A stretch of 64,000 nt of DNA from an uncultured Verrucomicrobiae bacterium (GTDB lineage: Bacteria > Verrucomicrobiota > Verrucomicrobiia > Limisphaerales > UBA11358), in the NCBI GenBank assembly GCA_963835625.1, contig CAWIGO010000012.1, positions 28,895 through 92,894 on the forward strand. Reading direction: 5' to 3'. Within the stretch, counting starts at the first letter, position 1. The number at the start of each line of letters is the position of its first letter. Position numbers and translations under genes: made by a program. This document shows, in pieces, positions 2,291 through 61,786 of the stretch. The notes beneath the pieces were generated by a model. It was not told the origin of the DNA and searched no databases. It saw only the letters and a list, made by a program, of their open reading frames with translations.

Positions 2291-3151
2291 ATGGAAAAGT
2301 CGCATTTTGAAACCAAAGTTGGCTTGTTCGTGCTCGTCGGGATCGCACTGCTGGCCGTGCTGCTGATTCAATTCAGCAAGGGCACGAGCTTGTTTCGCGG
2401 CACTTACGAATTGCGCCTGCATGCCGATAATGTCGGCGGCCTCAAGCCGCGCTCGGCTGTCCTGCTCGCCGGAGTGCAAGTCGGCAGCGTTTCGGACATC
2501 AAACTTGCCGAAAACGGCAAAAGCGTCACCATTTTTCTGCGCATTTACCAAAACTACAAAATTTACCACGACGTGCGGTTTGTCATTGAACAATCCGGTT
2601 TCCTCGGCGACCAATATGTCTCCATCATCCCGACGGCCAATCAATTACCCCTGCTCCAAAACGGAGCAGACGTGCCGTGTGAACAGCCGTTCAACCTGCA
2701 GGAAGTCGCGCGCTCGGCATCCGGCTTTATTCTGCGTATTGACGAAACGGCAAAGAAACTCGATACCGCCGTCAGCGATCTCAACGCGTTCGTCGCGACA
2801 AACGGTTCGCAGATTGACCTCGCCGTCAGCAACGCGGTTTTCTTTTCACAAGAGCTTACCAGACTGGCCGGCAGCGCCCGTAGCGTCATTTCGACGAACA
2901 GCGAGGGAATTTCTGCTTCTGTAAAAAACATCGAATCTTCGACCGAAGTTCTAAAAAAATTGATGAACGATTTGCAATCCGGTAAAGGGCTGGCTGGAAC
3001 CATGCTGAAAAACGAACAATTGGCGACTAACGTGCAGGAAATTGCAGACAACCTCGCGATCGCGACAAGCAATCTGAACCGGCTCGGTCTGTGGCATTTT
3101 CTCTGGCATCGCGAGCCGCCGCATACAAACGAGATGACACAAAAACCATGA
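2291..3151 (+). CDS. mlaD: MlaD/MCE-domain protein
   Basis: N-terminal TM helix followed by an MCE-like domain (GLKPRSAVLLAGVQVGSV). Third gene of the mlaEFD arrangement. Confidence 0.8.
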   Translation: MEKSHFETKVGLFVLVGIALLAVLLIQFSKGTSLFRGTYELRLHADNVGGLKPRSAVLLAGVQVGSVSDIKLAENGKSVTIFLRIYQNYKIYHDVRFVIEQSGFLGDQYVSIIPTANQLPLLQNGADVPCEQPFNLQEVARSASGFILRIDETAKKLDTAVSDLNAFVATNGSQIDLAVSNAVFFSQELTRLAGSARSVISTNSEGISASVKNIESSTEVLKKLMNDLQSGKGLAGTMLKNEQLATNVQEIADNLAIATSNLNRLGLWHFLWHREPPHTNEMTQKP

Positions 3152-4170
3152 CTCCGCTTTGGATTATTCGCGTTTTATTTTTGAGCCTGTGCACGACGGC
3201 GGGTTATGCCGTCAGCCAGGTGAACCCCGAATTCACCGGTGTGAATTACAGCGGCGTGTTCGGCATGCTCCTCGGTTTTGGTTTTGGTGGATTGATGATT
3301 GCCGTGGATGAAATGCTCAAGGGGTTTTCACTGCGCGCATTCTCGGCCATTACGTTCGGCCTGTTGCTCGGCACGGTTGTCGCGCTTCTCATTGACCGCG
3401 GTTCGGGCCTGTTTGAAAATGCCGAGGAAAAAGTCCGCTGGCTCATCCGGCTCGGACTCTTTCTGGGTTTTAGTTATATCGGCATTGTTCTTGCCATGCG
3501 CAGCAACAAGGAAGATTTCTCGCTTATCATCCCCTATGTCCGGTTTAGACAACAAAGTCAGCAGGATAATTTACTTTTGCTCGACACCAGCGTCATCATT
3601 GACGGTCGAATCGCGGATTTGATTGAAGCCCGTATTTTTGAAGGCCTGATTGTCGTGCCGCGATTCGTGCTCAATGAAATTCAGCAAATTGCCGATTCGA
3701 GTGATCCCATCAAGCGCGAGCGTGGCCGGCGCGGACTCGAAATGCTCAACCGCATCCAACGCAATACCAACATCGAAGTCCGCATTCACGAAAGCGATTT
3801 CCCCGACGAAAAGGAGGTGGACGCCAAGCTCGTCCGCCTGGCGCACAGCCTCAACGCCCGGCTTTTCACCAACGACTACAACCTCGCCAAAGTCGCTGAG
3901 CTTCTAAAGGTCAACTGTGTGAACCTCCATGAAGTCGCCAAACACCTCAAAACCATTTTGATCCCCGGCGAAATTTTGCGCTTGAAGATTGTTCGCGAGG
4001 GCAAGGACAAAGGCCAGGGCGTTGGCTACATGCCAGACGGCACGATGGTCGTCATCAACAATGGCCAAGCGCACATCGGCCAGCAGGTCGAAGTGGAAGT
4101 CAAGAGCCTGCTCCAAACCGGCGCTGGTGTCATCATCTTCGCCGACATAAAAACGCCGGTGGCTGCTTGA
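3148..4170 (+). CDS. PIN/TRAM-domain membrane protein (YacL-like)
   Basis: ORF 3091..4170 trimmed to the ATG at 3148, which makes an ATGA overlap with the mlaD stop. It has N-terminal TM helices, a PIN-like LLLLDTSVIIDGRI segment and a C-terminal TRAM-like GQQVEVEVKSLLQTGAGVIIFA. Confidence 0.7.
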   Translation: MTPLWIIRVLFLSLCTTAGYAVSQVNPEFTGVNYSGVFGMLLGFGFGGLMIAVDEMLKGFSLRAFSAITFGLLLGTVVALLIDRGSGLFENAEEKVRWLIRLGLFLGFSYIGIVLAMRSNKEDFSLIIPYVRFRQQSQQDNLLLLDTSVIIDGRIADLIEARIFEGLIVVPRFVLNEIQQIADSSDPIKRERGRRGLEMLNRIQRNTNIEVRIHESDFPDEKEVDAKLVRLAHSLNARLFTNDYNLAKVAELLKVNCVNLHEVAKHLKTILIPGEILRLKIVREGKDKGQGVGYMPDGTMVVINNGQAHIGQQVEVEVKSLLQTGAGVIIFADIKTPVAA

Positions 4171-4199
4171 AATCACGCGGCTCCGGGCGACTTTGAATC

Positions 4200-4412
4200 A
4201 TGCAACTCGTTACTATTTCCAGCGAACTGAACGCAACCGAAGCGCAGATGAAGCGCGCCCGGCTCGAAGCGGCTGGATTCCACGCCGTCGTCATGAACGA
4301 AGCTTCTTCCTTTTGGATGGGCACCGCCATCGCCACCGGCGGCATCCTCGTTCAAGTGCCTGAATCCGAAGCCGCCGATGCCAGGGAATTTCTCAGCGCG
4401 CCCGTCGAATGA
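4200..4412 (+). CDS. Small DUF2007-like protein
   Basis: 70 aa ORF. Its stop overlaps the start of the next gene (ATGA). The sequence resembles the putative signal-transducing DUF2007 fold; this family call was made by eye only. Confidence 0.45.
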   Translation: MQLVTISSELNATEAQMKRARLEAAGFHAVVMNEASSFWMGTAIATGGILVQVPESEAADAREFLSAPVE

Positions 4413-5788
4413 CTCCTGAAAAATTAAAATCGCTCCGCCGGCTCAAAAAGATTCTGCCCTCTGGCGAAATCATCTTCGATCCGCGAACGCTTGAAAAATA
4501 TGCCGGGGACAAATGGTTTGCTTCGCATCAGCCGGACGCCGTCGCCCTGCCCCGCTCCACCCAATCCGTCTCTGCTCTGCTCCGCTTTGCCAATCGCCAC
4601 GGTATTCCCGTGACACCGCGCGGCGCGGGCCATGGCTACGTTGGCGGCTGCGTGCCCGTGCGCGGGGGCATCGTGCTCTCGCTGGAACGCATGAATCGCA
4701 TCAAGGAAATCAACGCCGCCGATTTCATTGCCGTCGTCCAGCCGGGCGTCAACACGCAAACGCTTCAGAAAATCGTTGAAAGGCGCGGCCTCTTTTACCC
4801 GCCCGACCCTGCCAGCCGCGCGGATAACTTCATCGGCGGCAACATTGCCACCAACGCCGGCGGCCCGCGCTGTTTGAAATATGGCGTCACCCGCGATTAT
4901 GTCCTCGGCCTTGAAGTCGTCCTCGCCGATGGAACTGTCGTCCGGCTCGGCGGTCGCACGCACAAAAACAAAACCGGTTTTGAGTTGCACCGGTTGTTCA
5001 TCGGCTCGGAAGGTTTGCTCGGCGTCGTCACTGAAGCCACAATCAAACTGATTCCGCTGCCGCCATTTCGCGCAACGCTTGCCGCCGGTTTCCATTCGAT
5101 GAAAGATGCGGTGCGCGCGCTTCAAGGAATTTTGGCCGCTGGATTTCTGCCCAGCGCGCTCGAATTGGCCGACGAATTCACGCTCGCTGCCGCCGCCGAA
5201 TACACAAAAAACAATCGTCTTGGAATTTGCCGCGCGCATCTGATTGTTGAACTCGACGGCCAGAAAAATTCCGTGCGCAGCGAATTGCCCGCCGTCGAGC
5301 GCGTGATTCGCAGGCATCAACCGCGATTCGTCGAACGTGGATGGGGCGATATCGAGTGCGAAAAAATCTGGCAAATCCGCCGCGAATTTTCCGCCGCGCT
5401 CAAAGACACTGGCCTTACAAAACTCAACGAGGACATCGTCGTGCCACGCGGAAAACTTGAAGCGCTTTTCAAATTCACGGCGAAGTTGCAAAAGAAACAC
5501 GATCTGCCGATTGCCTGTTTCGGTCATGCCGGCGACGGCAATATCCACACCAATGTAATGGTGGATTATACACAGCCCGGTGCCAAACACCGCGCCGAAG
5601 CCGCGCTGGATGAACTCTTTGCTCAAATTATCGCCTGGGGTGGTGCCATCAGTGGCGAACACGGCGTCGGCCTTGCCAAAAAACGCTGGTGGCCGCTGGC
5701 GGTTTCAAAGGAAGTTCGCGAACTCCATCGTGCTGTAAAGCACGCGCTCGACCCGAAAGGCATTTTGAATCCGGGCAAGTTTGTTTGA
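4409..5788 (+). CDS. FAD-binding oxidoreductase, GlcD / D-lactate dehydrogenase family
   Basis: 459 aa with an FAD_binding_4-type N-terminus (PRGAGHGYVGG) and a C-terminal GGAISGEHGVGLAK motif typical of FAD-linked oxidases. Confidence 0.85.
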   Translation: MTPEKLKSLRRLKKILPSGEIIFDPRTLEKYAGDKWFASHQPDAVALPRSTQSVSALLRFANRHGIPVTPRGAGHGYVGGCVPVRGGIVLSLERMNRIKEINAADFIAVVQPGVNTQTLQKIVERRGLFYPPDPASRADNFIGGNIATNAGGPRCLKYGVTRDYVLGLEVVLADGTVVRLGGRTHKNKTGFELHRLFIGSEGLLGVVTEATIKLIPLPPFRATLAAGFHSMKDAVRALQGILAAGFLPSALELADEFTLAAAAEYTKNNRLGICRAHLIVELDGQKNSVRSELPAVERVIRRHQPRFVERGWGDIECEKIWQIRREFSAALKDTGLTKLNEDIVVPRGKLEALFKFTAKLQKKHDLPIACFGHAGDGNIHTNVMVDYTQPGAKHRAEAALDELFAQIIAWGGAISGEHGVGLAKKRWWPLAVSKEVRELHRAVKHALDPKGILNPGKFV

Positions 5789-6200: not shown

Positions 6201-6227
6201 GGCGCGCTCGGAGAGCGCGCCCTACCC
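6201..6227. repeat. REP-like hairpin of the GGTAGGG family
   Basis: GGCGCGCTC-GGA-GAGCGCGCC forms a 9-bp stem followed by CTACCC. On the minus strand this reads GGGTAG + hairpin and overlaps the rsmI stop codon. Confidence 0.5.
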
Positions 6228-6920
6228 GACCGCTTCAACCATCACAACAAACTCGCCTTTCAAACTCCGCTTCTTCGCAATCTCCAGCAGTTCCGCCGGT
6301 TTGCCGCGCAGAAATTCCTCGAACTTCTTCGTCAACTCACGCGCCAGCACAACTTCGCGTTCGGGAAAAACCTCGTTGAGTTCGCCCAGCAATTTCCCGA
6401 TTCGAAACGGTGATTCATAAAATACCAGCGTGCCAGCAATTGTTTTGAGCGATTCCAATTTATTCCGTCGCTGACCGGATTTGTGCGGCAGAAAACCGAC
6501 GAAATGGAATTCGCTTGTCGGCAGACCGCTAGCGGTGAGCGCGGCTACCAACGCGCACGCGCCGGGAACGGACTCAACACGGAAACCGGCGGCGATGGCA
6601 GCTTTGACCACGCGTTCACCGGGATCGCTGATGCCGGGACTGCCCGCATCCGTGACCAGCGCGACTTTTTCGCCGCGCCGGAGGCGTTCGATGATTTCCT
6701 CGCTGCGCTTGGCTTCGTTGAACTGGAAATAGCTCAAGAGCGGTTTGGAGATTCCGAAATGCTTCAGCAGTTGCCCGGAATGCCGCGTGTCCTCGGCGGC
6801 GACGACGTCGCACTCGCGCAACACGCGTAGCGCGCGCAGCGTGATGTCTTCGAGATTGCCAATGGGCGTGGCCACGAGATAAAGCGTACCCGGAATCAAC
6901 GGCGGCAATGCGGCGTCCAT
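6222..6920 (-). CDS. rsmI: 16S rRNA (cytidine1402-2'-O)-methyltransferase
   Basis: LYLVATPIGNLEDITLRALRVL...AAEDTRHSGQLL is the typical RsmI N-terminus. The start is set at the internal ATG at 6920. Confidence 0.9.
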   Translation of the reverse strand: MDAALPPLIPGTLYLVATPIGNLEDITLRALRVLRECDVVAAEDTRHSGQLLKHFGISKPLLSYFQFNEAKRSEEIIERLRRGEKVALVTDAGSPGISDPGERVVKAAIAAGFRVESVPGACALVAALTASGLPTSEFHFVGFLPHKSGQRRNKLESLKTIAGTLVFYESPFRIGKLLGELNEVFPEREVVLARELTKKFEEFLRGKPAELLEIAKKRSLKGEFVVMVEAVG

Positions 6921-7128
6921 GCCTTGACTAAAGCAGAAATTGGGCGTCAAATAAACCGGATTCAGCAAATGAAAATCATTGGAACAACTTGCAGCCTTTG
7001 TCCGACAATAAAATTTAGCAATTCACAGGCGAACTATTTGTGGGTGAAAGGCTTTTGCAGAATCGAAATCAAAACGATGAAAAAGGATAGGCTGCAAACA
7101 ACGCCCCCTACTCACTGTTAGGTCATTT

Positions 7129-7638
7129 ATGTTCTACGACGACGAACCAGAATCATATCACGACGTTGCCTTGATTTGTTTGAACGGGCATGTGGTTAAC
7201 GATAGTTCTCGCACAAGCCCACAATTCAACGCGAAGCATTGCGATAAGTGTGGAGAGCCTACCATTGACACATGCCCAGCTTGTAAGAAGCCCATCAAGG
7301 GGGATTACAAGTCTCCGGGTGTTTTGGTGCTTGGCATGGGACAATCGCCCGCACCGAGTTTTTGTCAGGAGTGTGGCAAGTCGTTTCCTTGGACTGAGCG
7401 GCGGCTCGCCGCTGCCAAAGAGTTGGCAGACGAGTTAGATGGTTTGACGGATGATGACAAATTGAAGTTGCGGGGAGCCCTCGACGACCTAGTTAAGGAG
7501 GGGCCGAAAGTTGAGCCTGCAAAGTTGCGATTCAAGCAGATTATGAAAAAGGTTAGTCGAGAAGGCTACGATATGATGAAGTCGGTAGTCACTGATCTTG
7601 TCAGTGAGTCCGTTCGTAAGGCAATTTATGGTTCGTGA
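7129..7638 (+). CDS. Cassette ORF: double zinc-ribbon protein (possibly DUF2321-like)
   Basis: 169 aa with C..H, CDKC, CPAC and CQEC pairs, then a charged helical C-terminus. The ATG lies 5 nt after GTTAGGT. Confidence 0.6.
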   Translation: MFYDDEPESYHDVALICLNGHVVNDSSRTSPQFNAKHCDKCGEPTIDTCPACKKPIKGDYKSPGVLVLGMGQSPAPSFCQECGKSFPWTERRLAAAKELADELDGLTDDDKLKLRGALDDLVKEGPKVEPAKLRFKQIMKKVSREGYDMMKSVVTDLVSESVRKAIYGS

Positions 7639-7644
7639 GCAATG

Positions 7645-7774
7645 GCCTAACAAATCGCTGCAGGCAACTCCGATAAATCGCGAGCAGGCGCGGGCTGGCG
7701 TACAGTCAGCCTGCCCCGAAAGCTTTCGCGGTTGACATCACACATCAGGCGTGGCTCAGTTCTCGTCGCTAGGC
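7645..7774 (+). repeat. attC-like site 1A
   Basis: R'' GCCTAAC at 7645-7651 and L'' TCGCTGCAGGCAAC. L' is GCGTGGCTCAGTTCTCGTC. R' is the degenerate GCTAGGC at 7768-7774. The internal core is homologous to the element at 53889. Confidence 0.6.
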
Positions 7775-7786
7775 AGCATTACATTT

Positions 7787-8041
7787 ATGACCACACCAAC
7801 ACCAGTATCACCCACACCTAAGTCCAAACTCCTGCCGATTGGCATTTTATTTATCGTAGTTGGTTTACTTGGACGACAACCACTCGCCAAAGTAGTCGTG
7901 GCTATGCAGCCCAGCCTACTGCGGGGGATTTTATATGTGATCGCCACCGATGGTCTCACGTTATTATTTTTTGCAGGCGTGACCTGTGCTTTGCTTGGAT
8001 GGTTGAGAAACAGGAAGGCAAAACGACCTCCGAAAAGCTGA
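7787..8041 (+). CDS. Cassette ORF: small 2-TM membrane protein
   Basis: ORF 7751..8041 trimmed to the ATG at 7787, which is outside the attC. It has two hydrophobic helices and a basic tail. Confidence 0.5.
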   Translation: MTTPTPVSPTPKSKLLPIGILFIVVGLLGRQPLAKVVVAMQPSLLRGILYVIATDGLTLLFFAGVTCALLGWLRNRKAKRPPKS

Positions 8042-8063
8042 TATGGATGGCACACGCCTGCTG

Positions 8064-8197
8064 CTTAACAAGTCGCCGGAGCTAATCACCGTTGGCACGG
8101 TCAGTTCCGCTTTCGCGGTTCGCGTCGCGAGTCGGCGGTGGCTCTCATCTTCGCTCTTGGCGAGCTACGCTGAGGCAGTCAGCTTTCCACGTTAGGC
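8064..8197 (+). repeat. attC-like site 1B
   Basis: R'' GCTTAAC at 8064-8070 followed by AAGTCGCCGGAGCTAAT. R' GTTAGGC at 8191-8197. It lies between two ORFs. Confidence 0.55.
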
Positions 8198-8210
8198 CAC
8201 GGAGCGCGCT

Positions 8211-8504
8211 ATGAGATATTCGTTGCCCATATCACCAAGTTATCGCAGCCCGATTTTTGAGGCGGTTGCCCTTCAGGTGATTCTCGGCATTCTGAGTCTG
8301 CTGATTCTCGACGGTGGCACGACAGCACGCATTTGCGGCATCGCGTTGGTTGCTTTTTGGGGCGGAGCGACAGTTCTGATTTGGCGGCGACCACAATCAC
8401 CAACCAAGATAGACATAGAGTTGATTCGGTTCGGTTACTTGCCACTTGCCGTGCTGGCGTTCTTTTTGGTTCACTTCATTTGGACTTTGAGAGGTGTTGA
8501 GTGA
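8211..8504 (+). CDS. Cassette ORF: small 3-TM membrane protein
   Basis: 97 aa with a GGAG Shine-Dalgarno sequence (the ribosome-binding GGAG-type motif) 8 nt upstream of the ATG, immediately after R'. Confidence 0.55.
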   Translation: MRYSLPISPSYRSPIFEAVALQVILGILSLLILDGGTTARICGIALVAFWGGATVLIWRRPQSPTKIDIELIRFGYLPLAVLAFFLVHFIWTLRGVE

Positions 8505-8511
8505 AGACGTG

Positions 8512-8610
8512 GTCTAACAAATCGCTGCAGGCAACGCGGGGTGGCGTCTCCAGTTCCGCTATCGCGGAGGTCATCATCCGCTCCGCGTGCCTGAGCTCTG
8601 GACGTTAGGC
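8512..8610 (+). repeat. attC-like site 1C (best preserved)
   Basis: R'' GTCTAAC at 8512-8518 and R' GTTAGGC at 8604-8610. The arms pair, leaving unpaired bases in the L box. Confidence 0.7.
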
Positions 8611-8613
8611 GGC

Positions 8614-9057
8614 ATGACACCACGCTGGATACATATAGCTTTCGGGCTTGTTTGGCTTTTCACGGCATTGAGTTTTGGATTTCTCGCCCAAGACGCATAC
8701 AAAGCTGAATCAACCAGTCTGCTAAAGATTGGTGGACAGGTTCCAGAACATTTAATCGCATTCAACGATTTAGATATTGGAAAGGCGTTCAACATCATTT
8801 TAATGGTAAACAACAAGAATGTGAGATTGTTGGAAGCTTCCATACGGCAGTCAGCGACTCTTAATTTCCGACTTAATTTGCTTTCGTTTTTCATGGCCAT
8901 TATTGGACTTGCGGCGCAGACAGGTCAGTATTTGCACGAGCAGCGCAAGCACACCAGGCGGAAGAGCTATGCAGCCCACCATAAGAGCAGCAGTGGGGTG
9001 CTTGATACGAAGCTCCAAGAGGGAGATACAAAGCATGACAATCCCAATGCCGCCTAA
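8614..9057 (+). CDS. Cassette ORF: hypothetical membrane protein (C-terminal part doubtful)
   Basis: ORF 8587..9057 trimmed to the ATG at 8614, 3 nt after R'. It has a TM helix at the N-terminus. The tail overlaps a plausible convergent minus-strand ORF (8851..9036). Confidence 0.4.
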   Translation: MTPRWIHIAFGLVWLFTALSFGFLAQDAYKAESTSLLKIGGQVPEHLIAFNDLDIGKAFNIILMVNNKNVRLLEASIRQSATLNFRLNLLSFFMAIIGLAAQTGQYLHEQRKHTRRKSYAAHHKSSSGVLDTKLQEGDTKHDNPNAA

Positions 9058-9094
9058 CACCTAGACAGGCCGCAAATTTCTCATCCCCGACAAA

Positions 9095-9415
9095 ATGAAA
9101 CCCGCCACAACATTCGCCGTTGTTCTGGTCACCGCGCCTGATTTGAAAATTGCCCGGGCGCTCGCGCGTGCGGCGCTGCAAGCGCGCCTGATTGCGTGTG
9201 CGAATCTGGTTACCAAAATCGAGTCGCATTATTGGTGGCATGGAAAAATTGAATCCAGCAGGGAGATTTTACTGGTTTTGAAAACGCAGAAATCAAAACT
9301 CGCTGCATTGGAGAAGCTGATTCTCGCCAAACATCCCTACGACACGCCGGAGTTTATCGTGTTGCCGTTGAGTTCCGGCAACAAAAAATATCTCGATTGG
9401 CTGGCGCAAATTTAG
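9095..9415 (+). CDS. cutA: Divalent-cation tolerance protein CutA
   Basis: 106 aa. VVLVTAPD...ACANL...SHYWWHGKIE...HPYDTPE is the classic CutA1 pattern. Confidence 0.9.
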   Translation: MKPATTFAVVLVTAPDLKIARALARAALQARLIACANLVTKIESHYWWHGKIESSREILLVLKTQKSKLAALEKLILAKHPYDTPEFIVLPLSSGNKKYLDWLAQI

Positions 9416-9437: not shown

Positions 9438-9512
9438 GGAGGGGCGAGTTACACGAGCCCCTGACTCAATCGAATACCTTTTAAAATGGGGGCTCGTGTA
9501 ACTCGCCCCTCC
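9438..9512. repeat. Long perfect inverted repeat (24-bp stem)
   Basis: GGAGGGGCGAGTTACACGAGCCCC (9438-9461) is the exact reverse complement of 9489-9512, with a 27-nt loop. It lies between the convergent cutA and rplQ genes. Confidence 0.7.
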
Positions 9513-46845: not shown

Positions 46846-47355
46846 CTAACTTTTCTCGGCCTTCGCTTTGACCACACGCGCGAGTTGCGTCGCGGGTGTG
46901 TTAATCAAAACGACCAGCTTCGTCGCCGGCGCGTTTAACAAGCCCAGCAGTGTGGCGCGCAATACGTCCAGACTCGGCAGATCGGCCAAGGCCACAATCG
47001 CCGCCTGTTCAAGGCGCTGATTGTTCAGATAACCAAACTGCACTTTTAGCCTGTCAAACTCCGCGCCGAAATTCTTGACCGTCTTGGCAGCGGCGGAAAT
47101 GTCCTTTTGCCCGGTGACAACGGCGAGCTGGCCGCCGAGCGAGCCGTTCAATTCGCCGACGCCGGCTTCCTTGGCCGCGATTTGGAACAGGGAGTTCTTG
47201 ACTATATGAATCTCCGCGCCGGCCTTTTGCAGGCGTTTCCGCAGCTCGGTCATATGGGACACCTTGAGTCCCTTGTAATTCACCACGATGAAGAACGGCG
47301 AGGCATTCAGCCGCGCAGCATATTCTTTTGTCAAAATTTGTTTTTCAGCACGCAT
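46846..47355 (-). CDS. rplJ: 50S ribosomal protein L10
   Basis: 169 aa at the L10 position and with the L10 pattern (FFIVVNYKGLKVSHMTELRKRL). Confidence 0.93.
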   Translation of the reverse strand: MRAEKQILTKEYAARLNASPFFIVVNYKGLKVSHMTELRKRLQKAGAEIHIVKNSLFQIAAKEAGVGELNGSLGGQLAVVTGQKDISAAAKTVKNFGAEFDRLKVQFGYLNNQRLEQAAIVALADLPSLDVLRATLLGLLNAPATKLVVLINTPATQLARVVKAKAEKS

Positions 47356-53414: not shown

Positions 53415-53554
53415 CGTTTCGGTGGGTCACAGACCGCAGAAACAACCAAAATTCCCATTGAAAATAATTCTTACAGGAATAAAGTCCCAACCATGAAACT
53501 AAAGAGGCTGCATACAGCGCGCTGCCTGCTCACTGTTAGGCCATAAGACGCATT

Positions 53555-53881
53555 ATGAAAACCGCGCACACATTGATATTGATTTCGATCATGATTCTTG
53601 CTGGCTGCACAACCGCTCCAAAAACCAATCGTTTAAGCCTTGGCATCACCAAGCAGCAGGTTATTGCCGTCATGGGGGCACCAAACAGCACGGCAGCGCA
53701 TATTGCAGGCGTTGAGATACTCCGTTACCGACTCTCGGCCACGAGCCACGATGTTTTTCACCACCGCACTGAAGAATATTTTGTGAGGTTGGTTGGCGGC
53801 AAAGTGGATAGTTACGGAAAGATGGGAGATTTTGATTCCGAGAAAGATTTGACCAAAAAATTAAACAGCGGAAACAGATGA
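53555..53881 (+). CDS. Cassette ORF: small lipoprotein (BamE/SmpA-OmlA-like by eye)
   Basis: 108 aa with the lipobox ILAGC. LSLGITKQQVIAVMGAPNS resembles the SmpA/OmlA fold opening. Confidence 0.6.
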   Translation: MKTAHTLILISIMILAGCTTAPKTNRLSLGITKQQVIAVMGAPNSTAAHIAGVEILRYRLSATSHDVFHHRTEEYFVRLVGGKVDSYGKMGDFDSEKDLTKKLNSGNR

Positions 53882-53888
53882 CACAGTG

Positions 53889-54032
53889 GCCTAACAAGTC
53901 GCCGGAGCCAACTCCGATAAATCGCGAGCGGGCGCGGGATGGCGCAAGCAGCCTGCCCCGAAAGCTTTCGGGGTTCCGGAAGTCGCGGTTCACGTCATTT
54001 GATCCCGCGTGCCTGAGCTCTGGACGTTCGGG
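53889..54032 (+). repeat. attC-like site 2A
   Basis: R'' GCCTAAC at 53889-53895. L' is GCGTGCCTGAGCTCTGGAC. R' is the degenerate GTTCGGG at 54026-54032. The internal core shares 21- and 22-nt identical blocks with site 1A. Confidence 0.6.
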
Positions 54033-54044
54033 CGGAGGTGAAAG

Positions 54045-55544
54045 ATGAGCAATGCACCAGATCCAAGACCGTTAAGCCCTATTTCTGCGTTCGCCTGGCT
54101 CGCGCTGCAGAATGACACTGCCTTTCTTGCATCGCTTGCCATCATTCCGCTGGCGATTGACCTTGCCACGCGCTTCATCTGGAGGATTAACCCGCCCCAC
54201 GGTTGGTTCCTTGTTGGTGCCACATTGGTTCTCCTCAGCGTGATGTCGGTAATTGTCGTGGGGAAACGCGTCCCGTTGCTGTTTGGTCTCGCCGCCCTTT
54301 ACCTGGGGGCGATGCTCCTGTTCGAGTCATGGCAGGAGGTTAGGATCGTTTCAGCCCTCGCAGAATTTGCATTTCCCTCAAACGAGAGTATGAACGCGTT
54401 CAGGATTCTCCTACCATTAACAATGCTCTTATCTTTCTCCGTCGCGGTTAGCGCCGTCGTGGCCATCGTCCGTTGGGATACGGGATGCGTCCTTCTCCTA
54501 TGGACACTTCCGCCGCTCGTGTTCCTTCGCTACGCGCTCTGGTTTGCCATGCGCGACGCACCAATTACCGTCATCGGCGAGTATGCTCTCGGCACATCGC
54601 TCTTCCTTTCTCTTTACAACACCCTTTTCTTGGCAGACTACGACAAGAACACAGACCCGGCCTATGTCCCCGGAACTTCATACATGCGCTCTTCACGTCG
54701 CTTGTGCCGATGTTGGCGTGGCCTTATTCTCGTTCTCTATCTCTGGTTTGCGCTACTCGCCGTCTTCGCCGCAAACACATACGTGGGGGACATCTTCTGC
54801 CAAAGCAGCGCCCGCCGAGTGCCTCAGTTCTTCTACGCTGTCACGCGCCTTCTTTCTCCTTTGCTCAGAGCATCTGTGAATCTCGTACCGATCGTTTTTG
54901 TTCTGTGTCTACTTGTCGGCATTTTGAGGATGATTCAGAGAGGGGCTGAAGCAGCCCGAACCAGAAGCTCCAGACTACCTCGCGTTCGGCCAAGAAAGGA
55001 GTATCAAATGTGGAACATCTTTCGATCAAAGATCAGTGATGCAGACCGGGATGCCGCGACGCGCTACCTACGCGCACTCTGCAAACTCGTCGCCGTTTTA
55101 GATAAGGACGCCGAAGCCTTCAATGACGTGTTTAATCGTTTCGACAGCAGTGATTCGTCAAACGAGGTCAATGGCTACCAAGTCAAGGCCGCCGCCGAAA
55201 AGTCGCTACAAGTAGCTTCTGAATTATCCTTACGTCATACAACCATAGGGAACGTCCCCGCTGTAGCCAACAAGACTTTTCAAGCATGGACGGAAGCATT
55301 CGAAGAGTACTCGATGTTCACCGGGCACCGCATGCTCAACGCGGGTTTCCTTGCACGGCACGGACGCGCTCCATTGGATCAGACACTGCACATACAACAT
55401 TACCATAAGTTCGGAATTGCTCTTTCAAAGGCTCAACGACAATTGAAAAGACTCGCATCTCATTTGGGTGTAAGCGACCAGCAGATGGCCGAATGGTTGT
55501 TCGGGGAAGGAGCGACGGAAACACAACCGCACAATCAAAGTTGA
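54045..55544 (+). CDS. Cassette ORF: large polytopic membrane protein with soluble C-terminal domain (hypothetical)
   Basis: 499 aa with a GGAGG Shine-Dalgarno sequence 6 nt upstream. About 8 TM helices are followed by a roughly 180 aa helical domain. An internal AAGGAG + ATG lies at 55008. Confidence 0.6.
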   Translation: MSNAPDPRPLSPISAFAWLALQNDTAFLASLAIIPLAIDLATRFIWRINPPHGWFLVGATLVLLSVMSVIVVGKRVPLLFGLAALYLGAMLLFESWQEVRIVSALAEFAFPSNESMNAFRILLPLTMLLSFSVAVSAVVAIVRWDTGCVLLLWTLPPLVFLRYALWFAMRDAPITVIGEYALGTSLFLSLYNTLFLADYDKNTDPAYVPGTSYMRSSRRLCRCWRGLILVLYLWFALLAVFAANTYVGDIFCQSSARRVPQFFYAVTRLLSPLLRASVNLVPIVFVLCLLVGILRMIQRGAEAARTRSSRLPRVRPRKEYQMWNIFRSKISDADRDAATRYLRALCKLVAVLDKDAEAFNDVFNRFDSSDSSNEVNGYQVKAAAEKSLQVASELSLRHTTIGNVPAVANKTFQAWTEAFEEYSMFTGHRMLNAGFLARHGRAPLDQTLHIQHYHKFGIALSKAQRQLKRLASHLGVSDQQMAEWLFGEGATETQPHNQS

Positions 55545-55550
55545 GACATG

Positions 55551-55671
55551 GTCGAAGGCGCTGCAGGCAACAGCCGCCGCGCCGGGCAGTTGACCGGTTT
55601 ATGAAACTCGAACATCATCATTGAAGGCCATGTCCCGCTCAGCGGCTGTGCCTGAGCTTTGGACGTTAGGC
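55551..55671 (+). repeat. attC-like site 2B
   Basis: Degenerate R'' GTCGAAG followed by the exact L'' GCGCTGCAGGCAAC. L' is GTGCCTGAGCTTTGGAC. R' GTTAGGC at 55665-55671. Confidence 0.55.
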
Positions 55672-55770: not shown

Positions 55771-55835
55771 GGTAGGGACGTTTCGCCGAAACGTCCGCAC
55801 AAATGAACGGACGCATGAGGCCATGCGTCCCTACC
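55771..55835. repeat. REP-like element GGTAGGG-hairpin-spacer-hairpin-CCCTACC
   Basis: GGTAGGGACGTTTC-GCC-GAAACGTCC ... GGACGCATG-AGGC-CATGCGTCCCTACC forms two 9-bp hairpins framed by inverted GGTAGGG/CCCTACC. Confidence 0.7.
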
Positions 55836-55880
55836 CAATATTTTAAACCGTTGCACACCCGAATAATCCAACTGAAACCG

Positions 55881-55901
55881 ATAGGGTCGCGCGTCCCTAC
55901 C
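55881..55901. repeat. Short REP-like palindrome (ATAGGGTCGCGCGTCCCTACC)
   Basis: Imperfect palindrome of the same GGTAGGG family, about 45 bp from the previous element. Confidence 0.5.
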
Positions 55902-60427: not shown

Positions 60428-60503
60428 GGTAGGGACGCGCGGCCCGCGCGTCCGACGGAAGTTCCGCCTCGTACTCCGGTCGCCTCGGCGAGGCGACCCT
60501 ACC
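60428..60503. repeat. REP-like element GGTAGGG-hairpin-spacer-hairpin-CCCTACC
   Basis: GGTAGGGACGCGCGGCCCGCGCGTCC ... GGTCGCCTC-GGC-GAGGCGACCCTACC. It begins 3 nt after the hemC stop. Confidence 0.7.
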
Positions 60504-60651
60504 TTTGCATTGATTATCACTTGGAATTGGCCAAATCGTTCTCGACAAAAGAGAAAGTCGGAAATACAACGGCCTTATGACAATCAAGCTTAACCGCAAA
60601 CTGCGCCCTAATATCTGTTAGCCAAAGAAACGAACATTACCCTAGGAAAAT

Positions 60652-61041
60652 ATGAACACACAAAACATGAAACTCACCGCAGAGGAACAATTGATGGTTG
60701 CCCGCCTCCGCAAATCGGTACTTTGGTGGCGTAGTTGGGGAAGATGGGTGACATTGATTGCTTGGATTCTGATCACGATTGCAAGTATTGTTAACCTTTG
60801 TAGGCTTAGCTTTATTGCTGGCCGGCTGGGAGAGCTGGGAGAGTCCGACAGGTCGTTTCGCGTGCTAAGGCCAATCCTTATAGGTCTTACAAGTTTCGAC
60901 GTTGGAATAATTCTAATTGCCGCTGCGATGATTGTGGTTGTCATTCAGTATTGGCATGGCAACCCAACTCGGACTCTTTTGCTCAAGCTGATAGACCATT
61001 GCAATCAAGAAAAGGTTTCAGAGGCGCAGCCGCATTCTTAA
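60652..61041 (+). CDS. Hypothetical 3-TM membrane protein
   Basis: 129 aa in an AT-rich region, with AGGAAAA upstream of the ATG. No family was recognised. Confidence 0.55.
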   Translation: MNTQNMKLTAEEQLMVARLRKSVLWWRSWGRWVTLIAWILITIASIVNLCRLSFIAGRLGELGESDRSFRVLRPILIGLTSFDVGIILIAAAMIVVVIQYWHGNPTRTLLLKLIDHCNQEKVSEAQPHS

Positions 61042-61600: not shown

Positions 61601-61743
61601 AACCATTTGGTCGCAGGCAGTCTAACCCAAGCATCCGAGTGGGATGCTGCTAAAGGGTTGGGCGGTTTTCCATTCACTGCGGCACAACGATCCACGGCTG
61701 ACATCACAGGCCCGGCGTGGCTTGAGCTCTGTCGTCGACAGGC
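61595..61743 (+). repeat. Degenerate attC-like site 3A
   Basis: GCCTAAA overlaps the stop codon and TCGCAGGCAG is L''-like. The 3' part, TGACATCACAGG..GCGTGGCTTGAGCTCTGTCGTCGACAGGC, closely parallels the 3' arm of site 1A. Confidence 0.4.
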
Positions 61744-61786
61744 TAAAAATTTTCTTCGCGCCCTTCGCGCGACCATTTCCTGAAAT

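Follow-up and report, generated by a model that had tools for sequence, protein, structure and literature searches.

The segment between the core genes rsmI and cutA in a 64-kb window (the whole stretch of DNA analysed here, 64,000 nucleotides of contig CAWIGO010000012.1 from an uncultured Verrucomicrobiae bacterium) is a real integron array of four cassettes that lacks an integrase gene in its vicinity. It belongs to a known kind of element, the attC clusters that have no integron-integrase (CALIN), found here in an unusual bacterial phylum, and its surroundings in the window are core genome, with ribosomal protein genes, rpoA, lpxC-fabZ, glnA and hemC. Four open reading frames (ORFs) lie on the plus strand, exactly at the coordinates that the initial annotation of this DNA had given, and the recombination sites of cassettes, attC, close three of the four cassettes. 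The distal site of the last cassette (9052-9082), a conserved terminal box, had been overlooked, as had two further arrays in the same window (arrays 2 and 3). The features of array 1 are listed below, with scores of the covariance model R1 described in the next section.

6222-6923, minus strand: rsmI, left flanking core gene (Pfam TP_methylase, 131 bits)
7077-7123, plus strand: attI-type site, head of array 1, assigned by homology to intI-adjacent attI sites
7129-7638, plus strand: ORF of cassette 1, 169 aa, DUF2321 / double zinc ribbon
7645-7774, plus strand: attC E1, 130 nt, long type, chimeric (R1 30.1 bits, E = 3.4e-6)
7787-8041, plus strand: ORF of cassette 2, 84 aa, hydrophobic, no family
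8063-8197, plus strand: attC E2, 135 nt, type A with a 38-nt insertion (R1 57.8 bits, E = 2.2e-14)
8211-8504, plus strand: ORF of cassette 3, 97 aa, hydrophobic, no family
8512-8610, plus strand: attC E3, 99 nt, canonical type B (R1 87.3 bits, E = 4e-23)
8614-9057, plus strand: ORF of cassette 4, 147 aa, no family
9052-9082, plus strand: terminal box of array 1, composed of R'' GCCTAAC (9052-9058), ACCTA, GACAGGCCGCAAA (9064-9076) and TTTCTC
9095-9415, plus strand: cutA, right flanking core gene (Pfam CutA1, 119 bits)

The three elements between the ORFs have been borne out by the covariance model, with the start of E2 at 8063, one base away from the position first given. Their inverse cores (GCCTAAC, GCTTAAC, GTCTAAC) and cores (GCTAGGC, GTTAGGC, GTTAGGC), the GTTAGGT at 7117-7123 and the distances to the neighbouring stops and starts have been found as described initially, with ORFs starting 3-13 nt after the cores. 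The reported AT-richness of the segment is real but modest, its GC content being 0.49-0.54 versus 0.55-0.59 in the flanks. E1 and E3 have a 25-nt 5' arm in common, and the 16-mer CTGAGCTCTGGACGTT is present in 3 copies, where 0.28 would be expected.

The cargo had been called uncharacterised, and no family has been recognised in it except in cassette 1, whose product matches Pfam PF10083 (DUF2321) with 186.5 bits and DZR with 26.6 bits. The other cargo ORFs have given no Pfam match above threshold, no cargo ORF including that of cassette 1 belongs to an NCBIfam or PADLOC family, and a tblastn search of the cargo against 198 fetched loci, in which the query for the second ORF of array 3 was mistranslated, has returned one weak match. 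The cargo thus amounts to one DUF2321 protein and several small membrane proteins.

attC sites of the array

A scan for the attC 5'-arm motif, with one genome per species, has returned more than 118 loci among the matches listed, nearly all of them from metagenome-assembled genomes (MAGs) of Verrucomicrobiota (Verrucomicrobiae, Limisphaerales, Pedosphaera) and with a density of up to 13 motif copies per 8 kb. In 14 of these listed loci a tyrosine recombinase is encoded whose box II and Tyr motifs are of the IntI type; the one recombinase of the 14 that was scored (L076, 3009-4043) reaches 419 bits on the integron integrase family TIGR02249, with a cutoff of 265. Labels such as L076 denote loci of relatives fetched from metagenome and genome scans.

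The lineage model R1 has been built from intI-linked sites only, namely 19 distinct attC sites from intI-carrying loci of related Verrucomicrobiota, none of them taken from the window, on which the fold was set by hand as a 7-bp R''/R' stem, an unpaired spacer and an L stem with two bulges in the 5' arm. Over 22 pairs, 95.5% of positions are paired in these sites, and 8 of the pairs carry compensatory changes; the two main subtypes exchange GGAGCC/GGCTC for GCAGGC/GCCTG. None of 500 shuffles has reached the observed pairing of this two-helix fold, and no register shift comes close either. The hand-set structure replaced an RNAalifold consensus computed on the five window elements alone, which was poor, since the long and chimeric elements misalign.

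Run over the whole window with filters off and a search space of 128 kb, R1 finds exactly five elements, all on the plus strand and directly after the 3' ends of ORFs, with E values from 4e-23 to 1.4e-4; the best match outside the arrays has E = 0.26. The proposal that the three elements of array 1 are attC sites of integron cassettes, for which a search with an attC model had been named as the check, is therefore supported by significant matches (E = 4e-23, 2e-14 and 3e-6). A scan of the window at Rfam gathering thresholds has returned three tRNAs only; to our knowledge, attC is not an Rfam family. With regard to core spacing, the five elements are 99-145 nt long, where cores 57-141 nt apart are taken as attC, and E3 folds like the attC sites of the lineage, the L stems of E1 and E4 being mispaired. 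Array 1 holds three attC sites plus the terminal R'' and array 2 holds two attC sites, in both cases in line with the definition of a CALIN as two or more attC sites that are spaced by less than 4 kb and have no intI nearby.

The elements differ in how well they have been preserved. The cores of E2 and E3 are fully canonical, and E1, E4 and E5 have one degenerate core each (R' GCTAGGC, R' GTTCGGG and R'' GTCGAAG, respectively). E3 shows the 7-bp R''/R' stem, an unpaired spacer of 5/7 nt and an L stem with bulged G16 and A23 in the 5' arm, and its DNA fold has a z score of -2.6 on the bottom strand and -2.9 on the top strand. E1 joins a type-B 5' arm to a type-A 3' arm, with its degenerate R' core and mispaired L stem, and no stable hairpin has been found for it (z = +1.3), while E4 is the reverse chimera with a type-A 5' arm and a type-B 3' arm. 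Judged by their appearance, E3 and E2 look recombination-competent, and E1 and E4 are probably poor substrates. As a separate observation, E1 (7645-7774) and E4 (53889-54033) are reciprocal subtype chimeras around a common long centre, CTCCGATAAATCGCGAGC...CCCCGAAAGCTTTCG, and it looks as if two attC sites had swapped arms by recombination within this centre.

The cassette boundaries have been probed through the 12 nt that follow each G|TT. These are complementary to the R'' of the cassette's own downstream site at 9, 8, 9, 11, 8 and 5 of 12 positions (mean 8.3), compared with 5, 7, 7, 6 and 5 of 12 (mean 6.0) for the R'' of the same physical element. As the complementarity to the own site is the higher one, the boundaries behave in the way the integron model demands; the start of cassette 4 is complementary to the flank of the terminal R'' at 11 of 12 positions.

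attI-type head and terminal box

The 47 nt at 7077-7123 contain a 14-codon ORF (ATG at 7077 to TAG at 7119-7121), a direct-repeat (DR) box GATAGGCTGCAAA (7086-7098), an L-like box CCTACT, which is inverted, and the R core GTTAGGT (7117-7123), in which the crossover position G|TT of the array is located. The box GATAGGCTGCAAA resembles the R core, and in L076 and L066 a second copy of it stands 24 nt away. The 47 nt up to the end of GTTAGGT align with the sequence between intI and the first cassette in four loci of relatives (L076, L066, L072 and L026). In nhmmer searches, a hidden Markov model (HMM) of four intI-adjacent attI sites has scored the site of array 1 with 28.6 bits (E = 6e-8), and an HMM of 13 sites from outside the window has scored it with 31.1 bits (E = 9e-9), where the best match in 3.2 Mb of shuffled window has been 13.3 bits. 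The three best matches to the attI model within the window are the heads of arrays 1, 2 and 3. In an alignment of 16 attI-type sites, homology stops exactly at GTTAGG(Y), with cassette-specific DNA beyond.

Two statements of the initial annotation have to be revised here. It had seen no attI or cassette-promoter (Pc) platform anywhere in the 64 kb, although an attI-type site heads array 1, and it had considered insertion of the cassettes at a secondary GTT site, where the GTTAGGT in question belongs, as R core, to a stretch of about 47 nt that is homologous to intI-adjacent attI (L076, L066 and L072). Going by this homology, the left end of array 1 would be a true integron insertion site (attI); the conservation of 7077-7123 may reflect either the encoded peptide or the DNA sites. 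In its empty form, without cassettes, attI would be expected to read ATGAAA..GAYAGGCYGCAAATTTCT. An intI 5' remnant upstream of array 1 had been suggested by eye from a comparison with L117 and L018 and has been dropped (z < 1.5).

In several relatives a palindrome, GCTGGACAAC-N6-GTCCAGC, is conserved between intI and attI (L076 at 4060-4100, L066, L035 and L033). It overlaps a promoter-like site, TGGACA-N17-TACANT, and is absent from the three heads in the window; it may be an operator for Pc and the integrase promoter (Pint).

At the other end of array 1, all that lies beyond cassette 4 is R'' GCCTAAC (9052-9058), 5 nt and GACAGGCCGCAAATTTCTC. The general form of this terminal box is R'' followed by 5 nt and GAYAGGCYGCAAA, and CCTAAY-N5-GAYAGGCYGCA closes arrays in 10 other loci, complete integrons included: in L076 the attI lies beside intI and the box at 6232 comes after four attC sites, and in L072, where attI again lies beside intI, the box at 6739 comes after thirteen. 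The same succession of attI, attC sites and terminal box is found in loci without intI (L059, L064 and L057), and further boxes are located in L100 (1109), which is matched by the box of array 1 in blastn, and in L035 (1677). Because the element recurs at these 10 other array ends, two readings of it in array 1, a truncated attC and the 5' half of another attC type, have been rejected. Each of the 11 short forms lacks the interior of the last attC. Since the box repeats the DR of attI, a 13-nt direct repeat brackets the arrays, and such direct repeats have been seen in 6 loci. The terminal box may have been the right half of the empty attI at first, before the insertion of cassettes moved it distally; this assignment is drawn from array 3, where the box occupies the R' position after a complete, though degenerate, 3' arm of an attC. 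A literature search has turned up no described array-terminal element. Joined to the DR...L...R' of attI, the terminal R''-N5-DR gives about 50 nt, and in 6 of 6 arrays this sequence takes an attC-like two-helix fold, with z between -1.0 and -5.0. An isolated match to the box core, GACAGGCTAAAA at 47055 on the minus strand, lies inside a coding region of the window and is probably due to chance.

With both ends recognised, we consider it likely that the rsmI-cutA segment is a complete cassette array possessing everything but the integrase, that is, an attI-type head, four promoterless cassettes and a terminal box.

Arrays 2 and 3

The two arrays that had gone unnoticed comprise the following features.

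53458-53541, plus strand: head of array 2, with a promoter-like TTGAAA-16-TAAAGT (53458-53485) and an attI-type site (53493-53541)
53555-53881, plus strand: ORF of array 2, 108 aa, lipoprotein-like
53889-54033, plus strand: attC E4, chimeric (R1 24.6 bits, E = 1.4e-4)
54045-55544, plus strand: ORF of array 2, 499 aa, membrane protein
55551-55671, plus strand: attC E5, degenerate R'' GTCGAAG (R1 38.2 bits, E = 1.4e-8)
60533-60623, plus strand: head of array 3, with a leader (60533-60575) and an attI-type site (60577-60623)
60652-61041, plus strand: ORF of array 3, 129 aa
61085-61600, plus strand: ORF of array 3, 171 aa
61595-61743, plus strand: distal attC of array 3, degenerate and long, from pairwise alignment
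61737-61757, plus strand: terminal box of array 3, GACAGGCTAAAAATTTTCTTC, occupying the R' position of the distal attC

Array 2, with two cassettes and two attC sites, is situated between lpxC-fabZ and a T2SSE ATPase gene. Its attI-type site has the R core GTTAGGC (53535-53541) and a 17-codon ORF that a 2-nt insertion has put out of the TAG frame, and it scores 16.3 bits (E = 5e-4) with the HMM of intI-adjacent sites and 10.7 bits with the broader one, so that it can be assigned as a candidate attI-type site with moderate confidence.

Array 3 lies between hemC and glnA and is the weaker attI-headed array. Its attI-type site carries a 14-codon ORF (ATG at 60577 to TAG at 60619-60621) ending in TGT TAG and a core GTTAGCC, and the attI core scores 11-12 bits. 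The leader aligns with those of L117 and L018 with z of about 20 and is nearly identical to both, which belong to one Limisphaerales MAG. The distal attC has not been detected by R1; its 3' arm aligns with the 3' arm of E1 (z = 9, 0 of 300 shuffles), and the terminal box aligns with that of L100 (z = 4.6).

As a further observation, hairpins of a type resembling repetitive extragenic palindromes (REP), GGTAGGGAC...GTCCCTACC, occur in 4 copies, where 0.07 would be expected; they are found just outside array 2 on its distal side (55771-55901) and just outside array 3 on its proximal side (60428-60503), and also at 9440-9510.

Origin of the integrase-less arrays

Neither intI nor an intI remnant has been found in the 64 kb, by a motif scan or by a tblastn search (E up to 10) in which 14 IntI sequences served as queries, and the missing integrase reported by the initial annotation is thereby confirmed. 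The arrays do not qualify as complete integrons, as rsmI, lpxC-fabZ and hemC stand upstream of the three heads and no remnant of intI is present. Regarding the two options that had been offered, a CALIN or an insertion at a secondary site, the former holds by definition, and the secondary GTT site is disfavoured by the attI homology.

Relatives document how such heads may lose their integrase. Orphan heads in L035 (twice), L033 and L064 keep the Pc region and at most 27 codons of intI, and this truncated intI shows the deletion of the integrase directly. The MAG MFD09286.bin.2.125 holds one intI-linked array (L072) beside two intI-less, attI-headed arrays (L033 and L064), and another MAG has four orphan heads (L018, L035 twice, and L117).

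The junction itself has been compared by a metagenome scan with RsmI, which has yielded 23 loci of 67-91% identity, and no attC and no attI-type site has been found in any of them. The same gene order conserved at this junction across relatives, which had been named as evidence against a cassette array, is thus not what these loci present. In 4 of the 23 cutA is present too, with a gap between cutA and rsmI of 0.6 to 2.3 kb. Two of the four gaps have been read: L119 contains a PemK/MazF toxin gene and a 461-aa ORF (2988-5021), L123 contains HicA and HicB (1370-1818), and these accessory genes are not accompanied by attC sites. DNA is conserved over about 50 nt upstream of rsmI (to about 6975) and again from the ATG of cutA. 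Owing to this limited conservation and to the other accessory genes, the junction appears as a variable spot, and the array as specific to this genome among those sampled.

Published origins of CALINs include integrase loss and rearrangement (PMC4889954) as well as secondary-site insertion (bioRxiv 10.1101/2022.09.11.507474). For array 1, integrase loss or duplication of a platform fits best and a bare insertion at an attG site worst. The arrays are CALIN-type integrase-less platforms, probably either serviced in trans or fossil. Since the leader of array 1 is without intI similarity, we infer its descent, and the platforms in the window most likely derive from a complete integron minus intI; likewise, array 1 has most likely been built through service in trans by a distant integrase. 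Several points weigh against this picture. The promoter scan has detected no sigma-70-like promoter upstream of array 1, and the leader has no significant similarity to any intI 5' region. Service in trans by an integrase elsewhere in the genome is inferred. The attI-type calls of arrays 2 and 3 are marginal by score (10.7-16.3 bits versus 13.3 bits for the best shuffle), and the mismatched L arms of E1 and E4 together with the degenerate R'' of E5 fit a decaying and possibly inert array. From the partial decay of these three attC sites, chimeric or degenerate as they are, we argue that the current activity of the arrays is probably low.

Carried further, the same decay would suggest that the three arrays are inert, left over from integrons that lost their integrase by deletion in the distant past, with no further movement and with ORFs that have become fixed accessory genes read through from neighbouring promoters. 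The mispaired L stems of the chimeric E1 and E4, the degenerate R'' of E5, the distal attC of array 3 that escapes the model, the truncated intI in relatives and the lack of intI within 64 kb all agree with such a fossil state. We regard it as unlikely, though worth serious consideration, given that E3 (87 bits) and E2 (58 bits) are intact, that at least one related MAG keeps intI beside intI-less arrays, and that the array is absent in 23 relatives with RsmI identities of up to 91%, from which it follows that it is not ancient at the rsmI-cutA locus. Insertion of free cassettes at an arbitrary GTT/GWT site of attG type, with no platform involved, would be in keeping with the variable junction in relatives and with documented GWT-site insertion, a proposed origin of small CALINs (bioRxiv 10.1101/2022.09.11.507474). 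It is nevertheless very improbable here, because the 47 nt that precede the crossover on its left share homology with intI-adjacent attI (E of about 1e-8) and the same element heads the other arrays, because the distal end is the terminal box of the family instead of a hybrid of attC and native DNA, and because no such sequence is present at the junction of the relatives. That the elements are generic REP-like palindromes or terminators with GTT cores can hardly be maintained: they are indeed GC-rich imperfect palindromes between ORFs, and a separate REP-like family (the GGTAGGGAC hairpins) exists in the window, yet there are five matches in 64 kb, on one strand and directly after short ORFs, where the initial annotation had named scattering irrespective of ORF boundaries as the contrary outcome; the same family occurs in arrays beside integron integrases, and compensatory changes keep the attC fold.

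Three platforms within 64 kb would be accounted for if a whole array could move as a super-cassette, its ends with the common 13-nt GAYAGGCYGCAAA joining as R''-N5-DR...L-N5-R' into an attC-like hairpin of about 50 nt and the resulting excised circle, with attI and all cassettes on it, inserting at new sites. The direct repeats bracketing arrays in 6 loci, the R/L hairpin that the composite ends form in 6 of 6 cases (z between -1.0 and -5.0, with at most 2 of 200 shuffles as good in four of them) and the near identity of the array 3 leader to leaders at two loci of another MAG speak for this idea. It seems improbable all the same: the homology of the ends exceeds the repeat, reaching ATGAAA at the left end and TTTCTTC at the right end, neither an empty target site nor a circle junction has been seen, and the R''/R' pairing of the composite is partly built in by construction. 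We know of no IntI crossover at L or DR boxes. A broader picture of a distributed integron, with one integrase, many satellite platforms between core genes and possibly whole-array circles, appears rather doubtful; each satellite platform would then come with a separate attI, leader ORF and terminal box.

For the preferred reading, a complete platform minus its integrase, the following mechanism may be proposed. An integrase encoded elsewhere in the genome, or formerly beside the array, would fold the bottom strand of attC, and the folded strand would recombine with double-stranded attI at G|TT. New cassettes would enter beside attI, and cassettes would be lost through exchange between two attC sites or between attI and attC. 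Expression would proceed from a promoter upstream of attI, and the 14-codon ORF, which ends in the TAG within GTTAGG, may link the translation of the first cassette to its own, in the manner of ORF-11 in class 1 integrons.

Such coupling has been described for ORF-11 of attI1 (PMC8876359), with which the window site has in common a presumably double-stranded site with repeated DR, L and R motifs resembling integrase boxes, the G|TT crossover and a short ORF across the site with its TAG stop at positions 3-5 of the GTTRRRY core of the first cassette. In contrast to attI1, the window site is without sequence similarity to it, has 14 codons and no obvious Shine-Dalgarno sequence, and does not lie beside intI; its DR and L form an inverted repeat, which makes the site look like three quarters of an attC. 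As with other CALINs (PMC4889954), the arrays are chromosomal, away from any integrase and loaded with uncharacterised cargo. They differ in that the head is an attI homologue and the tail a conserved terminal box, and that three platforms lie within 64 kb of core-genome DNA of a Verrucomicrobiota host. In CALINs attI has been generally undetectable, as IntegronFinder matches the attI of classes 1-3 exactly only (PMC4889954). Among sedentary chromosomal integrons with a lost or inactivated intI, those linked to ilvD in Xanthomonas, with additional CALINs (bioRxiv 10.1101/2025.06.18.660453), likewise combine highly similar, lineage-specific attC sites, fixed chromosomal loci, decay of the integrase and further CALINs elsewhere in the same genome. 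There intI has been pseudogenised, whereas in the window it is gone without trace, and the window arrays are tiny (2-4 cassettes) and not conserved at their locus among the 23 relatives. With attG or single attC sites lacking integron-integrase (SALIN; Loot et al., bioRxiv 10.1101/2022.09.11.507474) they share cassettes outside a complete integron, the intergenic position and the G|TT junction. Here, however, the junction is an attI-type site of about 47 nt and not a bare GWT, several cassettes are present and the terminus is family-specific; while native DNA sharing only GWT characterises attG, the left flank of array 1 is homologous to attI and absent from the rsmI loci of relatives.

The origin of CALINs has been hard to settle, as attI is rarely recognisable outside classes 1-3. 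With both array ends recognisable in this integron family, an integrase-less array can be read as a complete platform and not as a fragment, and each genome can be surveyed for the number of its orphan platforms and of those linked to an integrase. Service in trans, deletion of intI and whole-array movement thereby become testable in a little-studied phylum.

Some minor observations concern platforms of the relatives. A Rep-like gene stands beside the integron platform in two MAGs (L035, 3224-4222, minus strand; L076, 1372-2313), with the HUH-type motif WHIHVVV and 26 bits on Pfam REP_ORF2-G2P, below the cutoff. In L035 the 3' end of this gene replaces most of intI, and the unit of Rep 3' end, truncated intI, Pc and attI is duplicated 1.8 kb apart. 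In the complete integron L076 the first and third cassettes (4141-4422 and 4916-5158) are alike in their attC and in the 80-aa protein that they encode, the cassette having been duplicated within one array.

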